NCBI GenBank assembly: GCA_963526305.1
Contig: CAURNW010000007.1
Span: 161,032-225,031, forward strand
Origin: an uncultured Chryseobacterium sp.
GTDB lineage: Bacteria; Bacteroidota; Bacteroidia; Flavobacteriales; Weeksellaceae
DNA: 64,000 nt
Direction of reading: 5' to 3'
In this document: positions 20,554-27,338 of the stretch, one piece after another
Layout: each line of letters begins with the position of its first letter
Numbering within the stretch: position 1 is the stretch's first letter
Program-made: the position numbers and the translations under genes
The notes under the pieces: generated by a model
Databases searched by the model: none
Told to the model about the DNA's origin: nothing
Seen by the model: the letters and a program-made list of their open reading frames with translations, nothing else

Positions 20554-21142
20554 TCAATACAAGCCAATAATTTTCACTGTTCCGTCAATTTCTATTCTTC
20601 GAAGGTTTACTTTTCCATCTAATCCCATTTTTTTTCATGTTTCAAAAAATAAAGTTTCTACTCCTAAATTGTTTATTTCACCATTGCTATCAATACATTT
20701 GGTTCCGTTTAAAATAGGTTCTTTTAAATCCTTTGAAGAATCTCTATATTTATCTGAAAACAAGTCTAATTGTTCCTGTGAAAATTCGTCAAAGCATCCT
20801 GGTAAGTCCCGTTAAACAAAATAACATAATGCATTCTATTTGGTGTGACCATTCCCATAAAAGCGTTATTTACATTTGCAGGATCAGAAGTAGGCTGCGC
20901 TCTTGCAAATCCTAATAATTGATCAATATCCGGAGGCGAGAGCATCGGAATACCTGTCGGAGTATGGTTGTGATATGCTCTCCTGTATATCCTGTTTTGT
21001 CACCAAAATTTACACTGTGGGCACCTCCTGTTATCGTAGCAGAAGGTGTGCCGTCTGTTTTAAACTTGACTCCTTTTTCACCACCGGCAGTAGATTGTGT
21101 TTTAAGTTCATTGATTTTTGCCTGAACTTTCAGATTTTCCAA
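20554..21142 (-). pseudogene. Orphan cassette 4: decayed JAB-like C-terminal module. It has the 2-nt insertion plus further frameshift and stop lesions, and no partner gene.
   Basis: The upstream 76-aa piece is identical to orphans 2 and 3. The downstream reading MLSPPDIDQLLGFARAQ...NFHRNN* breaks after 57 aa. Homology (..LFFET*KKMGLDGKVNLRRIEIDGTVKIIGLY*) can be followed in other frames down to 20554. Confidence 0.75.
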
Positions 21143-21288
21143 CGTTTTTTAGTTTATTAAAAGGTGTTTTTTTCTAATGCTAAATTTATATCCTGCACAA
21201 TCCTCACTATTCGTTTCTCAATTTAGAGAATTATTTTACTGTTTTGTAAAAATCAAATCTTTGGTTTCAGGAAGATAAATATTGATAT
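20809..21288. repeat. Direct repeat copy A (480 bp, identical by eye to 22118-22597)
   Basis: Base-by-base comparison of the two stretches. The block spans the conserved core of the toxin-like module, the 93-nt linker and the last ~17 codons of the upstream partner gene. Confidence 0.9.
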
Positions 21289-21820
21289 CAGTTCCATCTG
21301 GACATTTAGTACTATCAAGAATTATATCATTGGGGCGATATTCCCATGAAATTTGCGAAGTATTTATTTTTTTTAGAATAATTTTACCCCAACCAACACC
21401 ACAGTTTGTTCCGCCGTAGCTAAATGTAATGGCATTTAGACTTGGAAGAGTTCTCATACTAACAATTGTATGTTGTATCTGATTAGAATGAAAAGTCATG
21501 TTCTGAGTATTTTGGATAATTATTCCAGATAAATTCTGTACAATATATTTAATTAATAGTACATCTCTGTAAAATTCTTGATCACCTAAATCTACTAATG
21601 TATGTATTTCTTTTGTTATAAAAATTGTAATTTTTTTATCTTGAAAATCAGCTTTATAGGTGCCAACATATGGATCCAATTCATTATCTATATCTTTTAA
21701 ATATGCATTCGAAGTGGTGTTTTCCAACAAAGTGTTTAAAGGTAAAATCTGTGATTTACAGGATAATACATTCATTAAAAGAATGAAAATTACTATTGAT
21801 TTTGTATTTATTGATTTCAT
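21236..21820 (-). CDS. Partner (immunity-like) lipoprotein, paralogue 4
   Basis: 194 aa. Signal peptide plus lipobox (NVLSC|KSQ). Family motifs YGGTNCGVGWG and KCPDGTDINIYLPETKDLIFTKQ. Starts 17 nt after the orphan-3 stop. Confidence 0.8.
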   Translation of the reverse strand: MKSINTKSIVIFILLMNVLSCKSQILPLNTLLENTTSNAYLKDIDNELDPYVGTYKADFQDKKITIFITKEIHTLVDLGDQEFYRDVLLIKYIVQNLSGIIIQNTQNMTFHSNQIQHTIVSMRTLPSLNAITFSYGGTNCGVGWGKIILKKINTSQISWEYRPNDIILDSTKCPDGTDINIYLPETKDLIFTKQ

Positions 21821-21837
21821 ATTTTTATTTTAGTGTT

Positions 21838-22451
21838 TTACAAACAAGGGACAGGAATTGGATTGTTATTATTATCTAAATTTATTTTTATAATTGTTCC
21901 GGTGCTCTGTATGCGTTGAAGGTCTATCTTACCCTCTAAGCCCATATATTTAATAGTTTTAAAAAATAATTTTTCCACACCACTACTATTTAGCGGACCT
22001 CCTAAATAATTTGTGTACAATAAATTTAAAGATAACTCATCTTCTATTTCTCCATATTTCTTCACATATTTATCCAAATCATCTTGCGAAAAATTAGTCA
22101 ATGCATCCTGATAATTTCCGTTAAACAAAATAACATAATGCATTCTATTTGGTGTGACCATTCCCATAAAAGCGTTATTTACATTTGCAGGATCAGAAGT
22201 AGGCTGCGCTCTTGCAAATCCTAATAATTGATCAATATCCGGAGGCGAGAGCATCGGAATACCTGTCGGAGTATGGTTGTGATATGCTCTCCTGTATATC
22301 CTGTTTTGTCACCAAAATTTACACTGTGGGCACCTCCTGTTATCGTAGCAGAAGGTGTGCCGTCTGTTTTAAACTTGACTCCTTTTTCACCACCGGCAGT
22401 AGATTGTGTTTTAAGTTCATTGATTTTTGCCTGAACTTTCAGATTTTCCAA
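21838..22451 (-). pseudogene. Orphan cassette 3: JAB-like C-terminal module split by a 2-nt insertion
   Basis: A 76-aa piece (22221..22451) ends out of frame after GDKTGYTGE. The 138-aa piece (21838..22254) resumes at MLSPPDIDQLLGFARAQ and carries a unique variable segment plus a conserved tail (EKLFFKTIKYMGLEGKIDLQRIQSTG). Confidence 0.8.
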
Positions 22452-22597
22452 CGTTTTTTAGTTTATTAAAAGGTGTTTTTTTCTAATGCTAAATTTATAT
22501 CCTGCACAATCCTCACTATTCGTTTCTCAATTTAGAGAATTATTTTACTGTTTTGTAAAAATCAAATCTTTGGTTTCAGGAAGATAAATATTGATAT
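22118..22597. repeat. Direct repeat copy B (480 bp, identical to copy A)
   Basis: Same comparison as for copy A. The offset is exactly 1309 bp. Confidence 0.9.
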
Positions 22598-23111
22598 TTG
22601 TTCCTTGTGGGCATTTAGTATAATCAAGAATAATATCATTAGGTCGATATTCCCATGAGATTTGAGTGGAGCTAATTTTTTTTAATTCAATACCTCCAAA
22701 GCCTACACCACAATTTGTTCCACCATAATTAAACCATACGATGCCTTTACTAGGATAAGTTCCTCGACTATATATTGTGTGTAGAAGTTGATTAGGCTGA
22801 AAAATCATACTTTGTGTATCTTGAAGAATATTTCCTGCTGAATTTTTAACAATATATCTTATAGACAGTGCGTCCTGATAAATATTTAATGATTTAAAAA
22901 ATCTCATTGTTTCCTTGTTAATGAATAATTTTATTTCATTTCCTTGAAAATAAGCTTTATACTCTCCTACATAAGGACTTAATTCGTTATTTAAATCTTT
23001 TATATAAGAGCCTTGTGGAATTTCTTCAAAATCTGTATTAAGAGGATAGGTTTGTTGTGCTTTGCACGAAATTGAAATAACGAATAAAATTAAATATTTT
23101 ATATTTTTCAT
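22545..23111 (-). CDS. Partner (immunity-like) lipoprotein, paralogue 3
   Basis: 188 aa. Signal plus lipobox (VISISC|KAQ). YGGTNCGVGFG and KCPQGTNINIYLPETKDLIFTKQ. Confidence 0.8.
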   Translation of the reverse strand: MKNIKYLILFVISISCKAQQTYPLNTDFEEIPQGSYIKDLNNELSPYVGEYKAYFQGNEIKLFINKETMRFFKSLNIYQDALSIRYIVKNSAGNILQDTQSMIFQPNQLLHTIYSRGTYPSKGIVWFNYGGTNCGVGFGGIELKKISSTQISWEYRPNDIILDYTKCPQGTNINIYLPETKDLIFTKQ

Positions 23112-23130
23112 ATTTTTTCTTTTTAAGATA

Positions 23131-23723
23131 TTAAGGACAAGTCGTAGTGGTTGTTGTTCCGTCAGTATTTTTATTTATTGTTTTTATAGTTCCATCATTT
23201 TCTATTCTTTGTAAATTAACTTTACCATCTAATCCCATATCTTTAAGCGCTTTGAAAAAAAATCATTCGATTGCTTCATTACTTACATCGCCAGTAGAAG
23301 GTTTATACATATCATATCTAGTTTGATAATCTCTTCCAAAAGCATCTAAATCAGATTGTGAATATGTAGTTATAGCATCCTGATAGGTTCCGTTAAACCA
23401 AATAACATAATGCATTCCATTTGGTGCGACCATTCCCATAAAAGCGTTGTTTACATTTGCAGGATTAGAAGTAGGTTGCGCTCTTGCAAATCCTAATAAT
23501 TGATCAATATCCGGAGGCGAGAGCATCGGAATACCTGTCGGAGTATGGTTGTGATATGCTCTCCTGTATATCCTGTTTTGTCACCAAAATTTACACTGTG
23601 GGCACCTCCTGTTATCGTAGCAGAAGGTGTGCCGTCTGTTTTAAACTTGACTCCTTTTTCACCACCGGCAGTAGATTGTGTTTTAAGTTCATTGATTTTT
23701 GCCTGAACTTTCAGATTTTCCAA
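23131..23723 (-). pseudogene. Orphan cassette 2: JAB-like C-terminal module with the 2-nt insertion plus an in-frame TGA
   Basis: The 76-aa piece (23493..23723) is identical to those of orphans 3 and 4. The 87-aa piece (23263..23526) ends ..NEAIE-TGA. The same frame then continues FFFKALKDMGLDGKVNLQRIENDGTIKTINKNTDGTTTTTTCP to the TAA at 23131. Confidence 0.8.
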
Positions 23724-23866
23724 CGTTTTTTAGTTTATTAAAAGGTGTTTTTTTCTAATGCTAAATTTATATCCTGCACAACCCTCACTATTCGTTTCTC
23801 AATTTAGAGAATTATTTTACTGTTTAGTAAAAATCAAATCTTTGGTTTCAGGAAGATAAATATTAA
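23477..23866. repeat. Direct repeat copy C (305 bp perfect match to copies A and B at 23477-23781, then near-identical to ~23866)
   Basis: Base-by-base comparison. The first mismatch on the upper side is at 23782 (c vs t). Offset to copy A is 2581 bp. Confidence 0.85.
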
Positions 23867-24401
23867 TATCAGTTCCATTCGGACATTTACTACTATCAAG
23901 AATTGTATCATTTGGTTGATATTCCCAAGAGATTTGATTTGAGTTTAGTTTTTTTAAATATATACTTCCCCAGCCGACACCACAATTTGTACCTCCATAA
24001 GAAAACATTACTAAATTATGATAAGGATTAATCATTGTACTGAAAATAGTGTGTCGAATTTGATTAATATCAAAGTTCATATTTTGAGTGTCTTGGAGCA
24101 CATTTCCTGATAAATTTTTAACAATAAATTTTATAGATAAAACATCTTTATAGAATTTTTGACTTCCAAAATTTTTGAGCGTCTTTTCTTGTTTATTTAT
24201 ATAAATTATAATATTATTTCCATTGTATGTTGAAGTATATGTTCCAATATATGGGTTTAATTCATTGTTTAAGTCTTTTAAATAAGAATAATCAGGTATA
24301 TTTCTAAAATCTGTATTTAATGGATATTCTTGTGCTTTACAAGATAAAAAACTTATGAAAAGACTAAAAAGAATTATTGTTTTAATATTTATTGTTTTCA
24401 T
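23817..24401 (-). CDS. Partner (immunity-like) lipoprotein, paralogue 2
   Basis: The ORF track gives 23817..24428. The likely start is MKTINIKTIILFSLFISFLSC|KAQ at 24401. YGGTNCGVGWG and KCPNGTDINIYLPETKDLIFTKQ. Confidence 0.8.
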   Translation of the reverse strand: MKTINIKTIILFSLFISFLSCKAQEYPLNTDFRNIPDYSYLKDLNNELNPYIGTYTSTYNGNNIIIYINKQEKTLKNFGSQKFYKDVLSIKFIVKNLSGNVLQDTQNMNFDINQIRHTIFSTMINPYHNLVMFSYGGTNCGVGWGSIYLKKLNSNQISWEYQPNDTILDSSKCPNGTDINIYLPETKDLIFTKQ

Positions 24402-24415
24402 ATTGAATATTTTAA

Positions 24416-24967
24416 TTATTGTGAGCATGTTGATGAAGTTGGTTGATTGCTACTATTAAGACTTACTATTTTTACTGTGCCATCACTTTCGATTCTTTGT
24501 AAATTTACTTTACCTTCTAAACCCATATTTTTTAGTGTCTCAAAGAACAATTTTTCTAAACCGTTACTATTTAGATTTAAATGGTCACTTGAATAGAAGG
24601 GATTTAATAGAAAAAGGTCTTTGTAAGCTAGATAATTATCTGAAAATCCATCTAGCTGAACTTGTGAGAAATTCGTCAAAGCATCTTGATAATTTCCGCT
24701 AAACCAAATAACATAATGCATTCCATTTGGTGCAACCATTCCCATAAAAGCGTTATTTACATTTGCAGGATTAGAAGTAGGCTGCGCTCTTGCAAATCCT
24801 AATAATTGATCAATATCTGGAGGCGAGAGCATCGGAATACCTGTCGGAGTATGGTTGTGATCTGCTCGTGCATATCCTGTTTTGTCACCAAAATTTACAC
24901 TGTGAGCACCTCCTGTTATTGTAGCAGAAGATGTGCCGTCTGTTTTAAACTTGACTCCTTTCACCAC
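24416..24967 (-). CDS. Orphan cassette 1: 5'-truncated JAB-like C-terminal module with an intact HNH...S..D motif, no signal peptide, and probably silent
   Basis: 183-aa ORF from a GTG start. Upstream homology continues to the ATG at 25016 (MKVRKKINELKTQYTAGGE) but is out of frame because of a 2-nt deletion in an A-run (gaaaaagg to gaaagg). The C-terminal 47 aa are identical to the full-length gene. Confidence 0.6.
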   Translation of the reverse strand: MVKGVKFKTDGTSSATITGGAHSVNFGDKTGYARADHNHTPTGIPMLSPPDIDQLLGFARAQPTSNPANVNNAFMGMVAPNGMHYVIWFSGNYQDALTNFSQVQLDGFSDNYLAYKDLFLLNPFYSSDHLNLNSNGLEKLFFETLKNMGLEGKVNLQRIESDGTVKIVSLNSSNQPTSSTCSQ

Positions 24968-25119
24968 CGGCAGTATATTGTGTTTTAAGTTCGTTGATTT
25001 TTTTCCGAACTTTCATATTTTCTAATGTGTTTTCGTTTACTACAGGGTTGTTCGTTTCTAATACTAGATTTGTATTAGGACCAATTTTCACTATTCGTTT
25101 CTTGATTTAGAAAATTATT

Positions 25120-25692
25120 TTACTGTTTTGTAAAAAGCAAATCTTTGGTTTCAGGAAGGTAAATATTAATATCCGTTCCACTTGGGCATCTACTACTATC
25201 TATAATTATATCATCGGGGTGATATTCCCAAGATAATTGAGTTGTGCTTATTTTTTTTAAAATAATATCTCCCCAGCCTACGCGACAATTTGTTCCACTG
25301 TAATAGAAAATAATGGAATTTATATCAGGTCTTGGCTTAATACTAAATAATTTAATTTGAGAATTACTATTGTTTTTCGTGTCTTGAAGTACTTCTCCAG
25401 AAGAGTTTTTAACTATATATTGAATATCTAAAATATCCGAATAATAATTTTTTAAAGAACTTTTTTGTAAAACATTTTCAACTTTTGTAATATATAGTGT
25501 AATTTCTTTTCCATTAAAAGTAGCTTTGTAAATTCCTTCATATGGAGGTAATTCATTATTTAAATCTTTTTTATGTGCATTGGCTGGAATATCTTTCAAA
25601 GGTGTATTCAAAGGTATTGTCTGTGCTTTACAAGATAAAAAACTTATGAAAAAACTAAAAAGAATTATTGTTTTAATATTTATTGTTTTCAT
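25120..25692 (-). CDS. Partner (immunity-like) lipoprotein, paralogue 1 (cognate of the full-length gene)
   Basis: The ORF track gives 25120..25719. The likely start is MKTINIKTIILFSFFISFLSC|KAQ at 25692, 14 nt after the upstream stop. Family motifs SGTNCRVGWG and RCPSGTDINIYLPETKDLLFTKQ. Confidence 0.8.
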   Translation of the reverse strand: MKTINIKTIILFSFFISFLSCKAQTIPLNTPLKDIPANAHKKDLNNELPPYEGIYKATFNGKEITLYITKVENVLQKSSLKNYYSDILDIQYIVKNSSGEVLQDTKNNSNSQIKLFSIKPRPDINSIIFYYSGTNCRVGWGDIILKKISTTQLSWEYHPDDIIIDSSRCPSGTDINIYLPETKDLLFTKQ

Positions 25693-25706
25693 ATTGAATA
25701 TTTTAA

Positions 25707-27338
25707 TTATTGTGAGCATGTTGATGAAGTTGGTTGATTGCTACTATTAAGACTTACTATTTTTACTGTGCCATCACTTTCGATTCTTTGTAAATTTACT
25801 TTACCTTCTAAACCCATATTTTTTAGTGTCTCAAAGAACAATTTTTCAACACCTGCATTATTTATTAAACCATTACTATTAACATATGTAGTTCCATTTA
25901 AAATTGGTTCCACTAAATCATTCTTTAATATTCGATAATCAATATTAAAAGTATTCAATTGTTCTTGTGAGAAATTAGTCAAAGCATCCTGATAGGTTCC
26001 GTTAAACCAAATAACATAATGCATTCCATTTGGTGCGACCATTCCCATAAAAGCGTTGTTTACATTTGCAGGATTAGAAGTAGGCTGCGCTCTTGCAAAT
26101 CCTAATAATTGATCAATATCCGGAGGCGAAAGCATCGGAATACCTGTCGGAGTATGGTTGTGATATGCTCCTGCATATCCTGTTTTGTCACCAAAATTTA
26201 CACTGTGGGCACCTCCTGTTATCGTAGCAGAAGGTGTGCCGTCTGTTTTAAACTTGACTCCTTTTTCACCACCGGCAGTAGATTGTGTTTTAAGTTCATT
26301 GATTTTTGCCTGAACTTGCGGATTTGTTAAAATAGCTTTCGTTTTTGTACAGGGATTGTTAACAATTTGATCATAAAACTGCTCCCATGTCAGATTAGGG
26401 TTTTCCATAAAAACCTGTATCGCAAAATTAGCAAAATCTTGATAATAGCTATTTTGCGGAGGAGATAAAGGTGGGATATGGTCAAGATAATATTCTAAAA
26501 TGTTACAATAAATATCAGCATGCTCTACAGCCCAGGATTTCGCCTGATCGGTTTGTGAGTGGAAAAAGCTACCCGCTCTTGCTGCTCTTACGTAGGATGG
26601 TTCAATTGTGGGGGGAATATTAGGGTCAAAAGTGTAGCCGCTCGGGTCATACAATCCTGTTCCTCCACCGCCTCCGCCATTGTCACCACCTCCTGGGAAA
26701 CTTCCGCCTCCTCCTGTACTTCCGCCACCGCCACCTCCGCATTCATAAGAAGTATAGCCTGAACTGGTGAAAAGACATTGAGCGCACTTATCGCATTGTG
26801 ACCATGACTGCCCCTCTTTACAATGCCATATTTCTATGGAATAAAAATCTGAACATATTCTTGCTGTGGATGGATTATTTATTTTTGTTACAATGCCTTT
26901 CTGAGAATCATATACAGGAATTAGCTCGTTATCTAAAATCTTAACAATTGAAAATGCTACATCATTGGCATTTTTTCTATAAACAAGATTGTAAACGGTT
27001 TCCGGGTTTTCAAAAATATTATACGCTCGTAAAGCATAGGTCTGAGTGTTGTTGACATCCATTTTGTAAATGGAAGTCTCGTCAATAAAGAATCTTCTTA
27101 GATAATCAGTGTTCGCACTGCTTTTGCCAGATAAGGGATTATCTGTTCTTTTAAAGTCATTGACCCCACTCAAAAAAGTCTCTTTTTGAAAAATACCTGT
27201 ACTGATTTTTTGATGAATGTGTTCTCCTGATTTTTCTTCATTGTGTTTTACTATTGCTTCTAAATCAGTTCTACAGGAATGGAAAGTGATACTAATGGCT
27301 ATCAGTAAAGACAACCACAAAATAAATTTGTTTTTCAT
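25707..27338 (-). CDS. Full-length lipoprotein with a C-terminal JAB/JAMM-like module (putative polymorphic toxin)
   Basis: 543 aa. Signal plus lipobox (ISITFHS|C). Cys-rich block (CSDFYSIEIWHCKEGQSWSQCDKCAQCLF...YEC). Gly-rich linker GGGGGGSTGGGGSFPGGGDNGGGGGGTG. Core GGEKG-x-..GGAHSVNF..AYHNHTPTGIPMLSPPDIDQLL, i.e. E...HxH-x8-S-x2-D. Confidence 0.85.
   Translation of the reverse strand: MKNKFILWLSLLIAISITFHSCRTDLEAIVKHNEEKSGEHIHQKISTGIFQKETFLSGVNDFKRTDNPLSGKSSANTDYLRRFFIDETSIYKMDVNNTQTYALRAYNIFENPETVYNLVYRKNANDVAFSIVKILDNELIPVYDSQKGIVTKINNPSTARICSDFYSIEIWHCKEGQSWSQCDKCAQCLFTSSGYTSYECGGGGGGSTGGGGSFPGGGDNGGGGGGTGLYDPSGYTFDPNIPPTIEPSYVRAARAGSFFHSQTDQAKSWAVEHADIYCNILEYYLDHIPPLSPPQNSYYQDFANFAIQVFMENPNLTWEQFYDQIVNNPCTKTKAILTNPQVQAKINELKTQSTAGGEKGVKFKTDGTPSATITGGAHSVNFGDKTGYAGAYHNHTPTGIPMLSPPDIDQLLGFARAQPTSNPANVNNAFMGMVAPNGMHYVIWFNGTYQDALTNFSQEQLNTFNIDYRILKNDLVEPILNGTTYVNSNGLINNAGVEKLFFETLKNMGLEGKVNLQRIESDGTVKIVSLNSSNQPTSSTCSQ

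Follow-up and report, generated by a model that had tools for sequence, protein, structure and literature searches.

A 64,000-nucleotide (nt) stretch from an uncultured Chryseobacterium sp. (contig CAURNW010000007.1, positions 161,032 to 225,031; hereafter the window) encodes on its minus strand a lipoprotein with a JAB/MPN-like C-terminal domain, followed by four orphans that each copy the final ~200 codons of its gene, and by genes for DUF6705 lipoproteins. Orphans 2, 3 and 4 share one 2-nt insertion close to the codons for a His-Asn-His motif, a lesion first described by a model that saw only the letters and the open reading frames (the original prediction). We conclude that this is probably one recent dead allele that spread among the orphans by gene conversion, a matter of ordinary decay and not a conserved silencing device; we put the probability of this reading at about 0.72. 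The duplication would have arisen once, recently, on an allele that already carried Thr55 (ACA), and gene conversion would then have spread it across orphans 2, 3 and 4 within a homogenised tract of 305–480 nt.

A search for a 23-mer that spans the insertion, GTGATATGCTCTCCTGTATATCC, gave exactly three sites, 20970, 22279 and 23551 (0 expected by chance). This search and an alignment of the five copies, made on the coding strand, bear out the predicted CTCTCC in place of CTCC at 20978–20983, 22287–22292 and 23559–23564. The full-length gene aligns as GGATATGCAG--GAGCATATCAC and orphan 1, which is without the insertion, as GGATATGCAC--GAGCAGATCAC; orphans 2–4 read GGATATACAGGAGAGCATATCAC. In codons, GGA TAT GCA G--GA GCA TAT CAC AAC CAT of the full-length gene corresponds to GGA TAT ACA GGA GAG CAT ATC ACA ACC in orphans 2–4: on the coding strand GA is duplicated (TC on the plus strand), and a G>A substitution (Ala55>Thr, GCA>ACA) lies 5 nt away. 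The insertion does lie 5′ of the HxH, but two codons from His59 and not directly adjoining it as proposed; the shifted frame does end early, but after 22 codons (EHITTILRQVFRCSRLRILINY) and not 16. Because the conserved frame contains a TGA 11 codons upstream of HNH, it restarts only at the Met of IPMLSPPD, as the prediction had it. With that TGA upstream and the first restart at the downstream Met, HNH is translated in neither open reading frame (ORF). The suggested separation of the Glu from HxH and SxxD is also seen, the upstream ORF having E24 and H44 and the downstream ORF S70 and D73.

YAGAY is encoded by a perfect 7-bp inverted repeat, GATATGC-AGGA-GCATATC (26162–26179 in the full-length gene, and the orphan equivalents), and the insertion site falls in its 4-nt loop. 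The orphan version has the G>A change in its stem and a loop longer by 2 nt. This hairpin context may have favoured the slippage that produced the insertion.

The three affected copies are orphan 2 (23134–23726, minus strand), which also has an in-frame TGA at 23263–23265; orphan 3 (21838–22454, minus strand), whose sole lesion is the insertion and which is otherwise intact up to its stop codon; and orphan 4 (20560–21145, minus strand), a terminal remnant with another frameshift and stop codons. A 305-nt tract is 100% identical in all three (23477–23781, 22205–22509 and 20896–21200, respectively), in agreement with the perfectly homogenised repeat of the original prediction. It begins in the intergenic spacer just after the stop codon of the preceding DUF6705 gene and extends as far as the codons for DIDQLLGFARAQ; between orphans 3 and 4 the identity reaches 480 nt. 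The flanks of the tract—the variable part of the toxin-like domain and the bulk of each DUF6705 gene—have an identity of only 50–75%. Since the flanks have diverged and the same cassettes are insertion-free in sister strains, the array is older than the lesion, and recent whole-unit duplication can be excluded. The simplest copying mechanism would be gene conversion within the conserved segment. Elsewhere, too, the locus is a mosaic: the full-length gene and orphan 1 have the same 3′ end, and this identity continues into the start of their DUF6705 genes.

Insertion-bearing 31-mers are present in two public sequencing runs from different studies, X17 (2020) and X25 (a freshwater metagenome, 2025), whose contigs otherwise match the window with at most one mismatch per contig. 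The repeat contig of X17 coincides with the 480 nt common to orphans 3 and 4 and has a depth of 6.7, compared with 2–3.7 for single-copy pieces. Related strains X1, X2, X4, X5 and X9 have the same cassettes, many pieces being free of mismatches. In these orthologous cassettes, where a comparison had been suggested from the outset, the insertion is absent from every site-spanning contig of X1, X2, X5 and X9; the site-spanning contigs of X4 also lack it, and one partial X4 contig stops at the site. X4 holds the Thr55 (ACA) allele without the insertion, and this type of allele is the likely precursor of the lesion. Absent from five related strains and present in window-matching runs, the lesion is therefore lineage-specific and recent. 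Together with its position inside an identical tract between diverged flanks, this favours the 'very recent spread of a dead copy' that the original prediction had offered as one of two possibilities. Looking up the exact window protein in public assemblies returned no record.

Joints 26325>25030 and 23304/23325>25954 reveal that cassette order differs in related strains, and the variable end of the window's main gene is missing from X5, along with most of DUF6705 gene 1. In X5 and X3, one contig links a variable end of the orphan-2 type with conserved sequence whose best match is the full-length gene; this may be a chimeric expressed gene or a natural cassette swap, which we do not claim on a repeat overlap of only 48–75 nt. 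The Gly-rich linker of the main gene varies in length: two indels in or near it (window positions about 26700 and 26873) separate related strains from the window, one of 18 nt (X1 and X2) and one of 3 nt (X1, X2, X4 and part of X3).

The insertion has company, including older lesions of other kinds. Orphan 1 (24416–25048, minus strand) aligns in frame at HNH and has its own lesion, an A5>A3 contraction just after the E24 codon (plus-strand T-run 24959–24961) that cuts E24 from the remainder. It also carries G56R and Y58D beside HNH (about 24850–24870), at one invariant and one nearly invariant position. The contraction is common to X1 and X2 (contig 24875–25651, gap-free). The TGA of orphan 2 stands where homologs have Arg (…NEAIERFFF…); X1 also has TGA at this position and X5 has CGA. 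Through two unrelated mutations, the insertion and the contraction, the catalytic Glu is uncoupled from HxH in 4/4 window orphans. Of the three whole-domain orphans in a second genome, L061, A is in frame with no start codon before E24, while B and C are damaged, one by a 1-nt deletion at H44 and the other by a deletion and a TAA at E24. Most orphans in other genomes are 5′-truncated, at residues 45–180. Separately, the interval from E24 to HNH is also broken in a full-length main gene on a metagenome-derived contig (L062:1385–1810), by two frameshifts that compensate each other. On the reading we prefer, the insertion would be one among several unrelated disabling mutations, a neutral or near-neutral mark of decay in untranslated toxin remnants.

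The full-length gene (25707–27338, minus strand, from the ORF list) encodes a 543-residue lipoprotein (lipobox ...FHSC), comprising a signal peptide and lipobox, a Gly-rich linker and the C-terminal domain with its variable sub-region. The conserved core of that domain (residues 1–136, 25929–26336, minus strand) contains E24, H44, H59-N60-H61, S70 and D73, with the HNH codons at 26154–26162. An AlphaFold2 (AF2) model of the C-terminal 209 residues has a predicted local distance difference test score (pLDDT) of 94. The top PDB match in Foldseek is Pyrococcus furiosus JAMM1 (5ld9_B; probability 0.97, E = 0.02, template modelling (TM) score 0.50 on target), then Prp8 Jab1 and BRCC36, with no PDB match at E ≤ 0.001. 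Viral fold matches are stronger, to E = 4.5e-6, and the lower-ranked ones include an 'MPN family protein'; nearest to the domain in structure are uncharacterised proteins of phages (some labelled 'minor capsid protein') and of giant viruses (Pithovirus, Heterosigma akashiwo virus).

None of E24, H44, H59, N60, H61 and D73 varies among 61 homologs, and at least 90% of these have S70. The His-to-Ser spacing is 8 residues, compared with 7 in the JAMM motif E...HxH-x7-S-xx-D. Predicted secondary-structure positions resemble the JAMM layout, in which the Glu precedes a strand, HxH comes at the end of a strand and SxxD at the start of a helix. The 'HNH' residues are thus modelled as the HxH of a JAB-type metal site, and the fold search fits the original assignment of E...HxH...SxxD to such a site instead of to an HNH nuclease. 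An HNH (beta-beta-alpha-Me) endonuclease was considered and rejected: H-N-H is consecutive rather than spaced, no HNH-family match was found and the fold matches are of JAB type. Searches of Pfam and NCBIfam gave no match for the toxin, the orphans, selected homologs or any of the 61 alignment members, and detected only DUF6705 in the partners; a PDB sequence search returned Gly-linker noise only. From a profile search of 1.84 billion proteins we obtained 1,974 family representatives at 50% clustering, the best 150 matches all belonging to the same family with no bridge to Tox-JAB-1 or Tox-JAB-2. Named homologs are all from Chryseobacterium, Epilithonimonas, Weeksellaceae or Bacteroidota, and those of the full-length gene are all Chryseobacterium/Epilithonimonas lipoproteins.

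The family is modular. One N-terminus (MRNKFILWLSLLIAFS...) bears different C-termini in P0004–P0008 and, conversely, the same C-terminal domain is found on many different N-termini. In 84/84 loci with room for one, the toxin domain has a DUF6705-like gene immediately behind it, starting −60 to +400 nt from the domain end. This pairing and the modular architecture together indicate a polymorphic toxin and immunity system, in which the JAB-like domain would be the toxin and DUF6705 the immunity protein. Arrays hold up to eight DUF6705 genes, which outnumber toxin copies in many loci; some (L046, L027, L061 and L093), in which 6–8 DUF6705-like genes are present and toxin copies are few or absent, look like orphan immunity arrays.

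All four DUF6705 genes of the window are intact and on the minus strand. The first (25120–25719; Pfam E = 9e-8), encoding the presumed cognate immunity protein, has a start that overlaps the end of the toxin gene; the others are at 23817–24428 (E = 3.6e-10), 22545–23111 (E = 2.1e-10) and 21236–21820 (E = 5.2e-9). Each of orphans 1–3 has a DUF6705 gene of its own behind it; orphan 4 has none. DUF6705 proteins have a signal peptide and lipobox (FLSC, VLSC, SISC). After the lipobox Cys, the toxin-family lipoproteins have acidic residues (SCRTDLE, SCVHDE, SCRSED; 27270–27338 in the window gene), as opposed to CKAQ/CKSQ in DUF6705. In the light of Bacteroidota lipoprotein export signals, this difference would fit a surface-exposed toxin with DUF6705 as its periplasm-facing partner. 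DUF6705 is not mentioned in any paper found by our literature search.

The orphans have no signal peptide, no N-terminal domain and no ATG start of their own, judged by the ORF list and the alignment. Their homology to the main gene starts at VQAKINELK, with intergenic spacer upstream. The strict Bacteroidetes −7 box TAnnTTTG was not found upstream of the orphans, where only a relaxed TAAATTTA occurs, and sites in a sigma-70 promoter scan were no commoner than in shuffled sequence. No type VI secretion system (T6SS) genes were seen adjoining the array in the ORF list, the neighbours not having been scanned against domain libraries.

Could a single error of polishing or repeat collapse have put the insertion into all three copies? 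The 305-nt identity of the copies is just the setting in which consensus errors propagate, and the original prediction had itself named an identical error in collapsed repeats as a possible flaw. That explanation is rejected by X17 and X25, since insertion-bearing words in independent public runs mean that the insertion is no assembly artefact; moreover, the Thr55 single-nucleotide polymorphism occurs without the insertion in X4, and the full-length gene and orphan 1 of the same assembly are insertion-free. We hold an error of this kind to be very improbable. We give as little credence to a reversible switch or recoding event, in which GA slippage (phase variation) or programmed ribosomal frameshifting would restore a full-length orphan product. 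A dinucleotide duplication in the loop of an inverted repeat is a slippage-prone context, but there are just 2–3 GA units, with no homopolymer and no slippery heptamer, and a read-through product could not be exported, given that the orphans lack a signal peptide and N-terminal domain. Each run also has a single form at the site, although rare variants would be hidden in Logan contigs; a phase-variable simple-sequence contingency locus was rejected on the same repeat count and single form per run.

A more serious contender, which we still regard as unlikely, is that lesions in the catalytic 5′ half are selected as a safety catch, allowing the array to be transcribed for its immunity genes without making a cytoplasmic JAB toxin. 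Such a signal-less toxin would be beyond the reach of a lipoprotein immunity protein, and the presumed immunity proteins do bear lipoboxes, as Zhang et al. noted for Imm65; homogenisation would spread the lesions while the 3′ variable part stayed usable as a recombination donor. Consistent with this, the 3′ halves are intact in orphans 1 and 3 and in L061 A–C, and the sole undamaged whole-domain orphan, L061 A, is the one with no start codon before E24. Strong selection is nevertheless hard to reconcile with X1, in which orphans 2–4 have no indel at the lesion site or anywhere else in their 5′ halves, or with the intact standalone whole-domain ORFs of other genomes (P0124, P0166, P0172 and P0198). 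Cytoplasmic toxicity is itself putative. The donor role fares no better: the longest perfect match between the full-length gene and orphans 2–4, of 143 nt, is on the 5′ side of the lesion, against runs of 40, 44–54 and 21–102 nt on the 3′ side, so that many crossovers would bring the frameshift along into the expressed gene. As judged from sequence, this layout appears to be poor donor design, although crossovers 3′ of the lesion could activate orphans by analogy with Salmonella Rhs. The prediction's other suggestion, of cassettes kept deliberately non-expressible, is not supported, on the same observations and because the lesion is not conserved and the remaining orphans are disabled in unrelated ways.

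Several points weigh against recent spread of a dead allele by neutral decay. Among the seven whole-domain orphans of the two genomes, four independent disabling events (window orphan 1; orphans 2–4; L061 B; L061 C) fall within the ~195 nt from E24 to Met68, and only one in the remaining ~426 nt, terminal remnant excluded; a binomial test on lesion positions gives P ~0.04, by our own arithmetic, post hoc and on a small sample. Such clustering hints that a break in the catalytic half may have been favoured by selection. Other strains were compared via short Logan contigs, with copy linkage and exact copy numbers inferred from depth. No reads of the array were found in four random-primed RNA runs that bear the same organism labels; the labelled organisms appear to be hosts and not the bacterium, to judge by poly-A libraries and very low bacterial depth.

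Of the systems described, the orphan modules of Rhs and contact-dependent growth inhibition (CDI) are similar in layout. These (Poole 2011, PMC3150448; Koskiniemi 2014, PMC3967940) are fragments downstream of the main gene with 5′ homology to it and their own immunity gene; they are without translation-initiation and export signals, and recombination between main gene and orphan could in principle activate them, as is described there for the Salmonella orphan Rhs fragments (PMC3967940). The window orphans likewise share 5′ homology with the main gene and have no start or export signals, and orphans 1–3 are each linked to a presumed immunity gene. They differ from the Rhs and CDI modules in three ways: the lipoprotein N-terminus would take the place of Rhs/YD repeats or CdiA in delivery; the catalytic domain is present in full in the orphans, with only about 45 residues varying; and three of them share a frameshift inside the recombination homology.

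Orphan immunity arrays that arise by effector displacement are known from the V. cholerae T6SS (PMC5361080) and the acquired interbacterial defence (AID) clusters of Bacteroidales (bioRxiv 10.1101/471110). There, as here, immunity genes are intact, displaced effectors are truncated or decayed, and homologous recombination leaves a mosaic. Intact DUF6705 genes beside decaying toxin remnants thus fit the effector-displacement model (PMC5361080); the difference is that the effector here has a Sec/lipoprotein signal and the immunity proteins are themselves lipoproteins. The layout also recalls SitA of myxobacteria (PMC5562445), an outer-membrane lipoprotein whose C-terminal toxin domain is polymorphic and whose gene is followed by one for immunity. 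The sequences are unrelated, and delivery by outer-membrane exchange is known only for myxobacteria.

The closest described relative in kind is Tox-JAB-1 with its partner Imm65, although membership of that family is not established. Tox-JAB-1 is found only in Bacteroidetes, and Imm65 is the sole lipoprotein immunity protein in the survey of Zhang et al. 2012 (PMC3482391), who proposed that JAB toxins are nucleases. The window family resembles it in a putative JAB-type site with E, HxH, S and D, and shares the restriction to Bacteroidetes and the lipoprotein partner. It differs in that the NxxxE motif and RHS repeats are absent, the consensus being QSTxGGEKG and the N-terminus a lipoprotein domain with a Gly-rich linker. 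Phage and giant-virus structural relatives recall the distribution of Tox-JAB-2 (DUF4329), but HNH is invariant here rather than H[ST]H, and P0029, a protein named DUF4329 by UniRef, had no Pfam match at E ≤ 10.

The locus thus appears to be an uncharacterised member of the polymorphic toxin systems with orphan cassettes. One expressed surface lipoprotein with a JAB/MPN-like end would be followed by its cognate DUF6705 gene, with displaced C-terminal copies downstream; the linked immunity genes would stay intact while the toxin remnants decay. The frameshift itself is ordinary, and its value is as a clean, datable case of concerted evolution carrying a null allele through tandem orphan cassettes. 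The locus is of more use: it brings to light a large toxin-like family that the Pfam and NCBIfam models we searched do not detect, borne on lipoproteins and strictly paired with DUF6705 lipoproteins, and that strict pairing gives DUF6705 a testable role in immunity. Where Zhang et al. proposed nucleases, a lipoprotein immunity partner suggests an extracytoplasmic target instead, a question that this family could settle experimentally.

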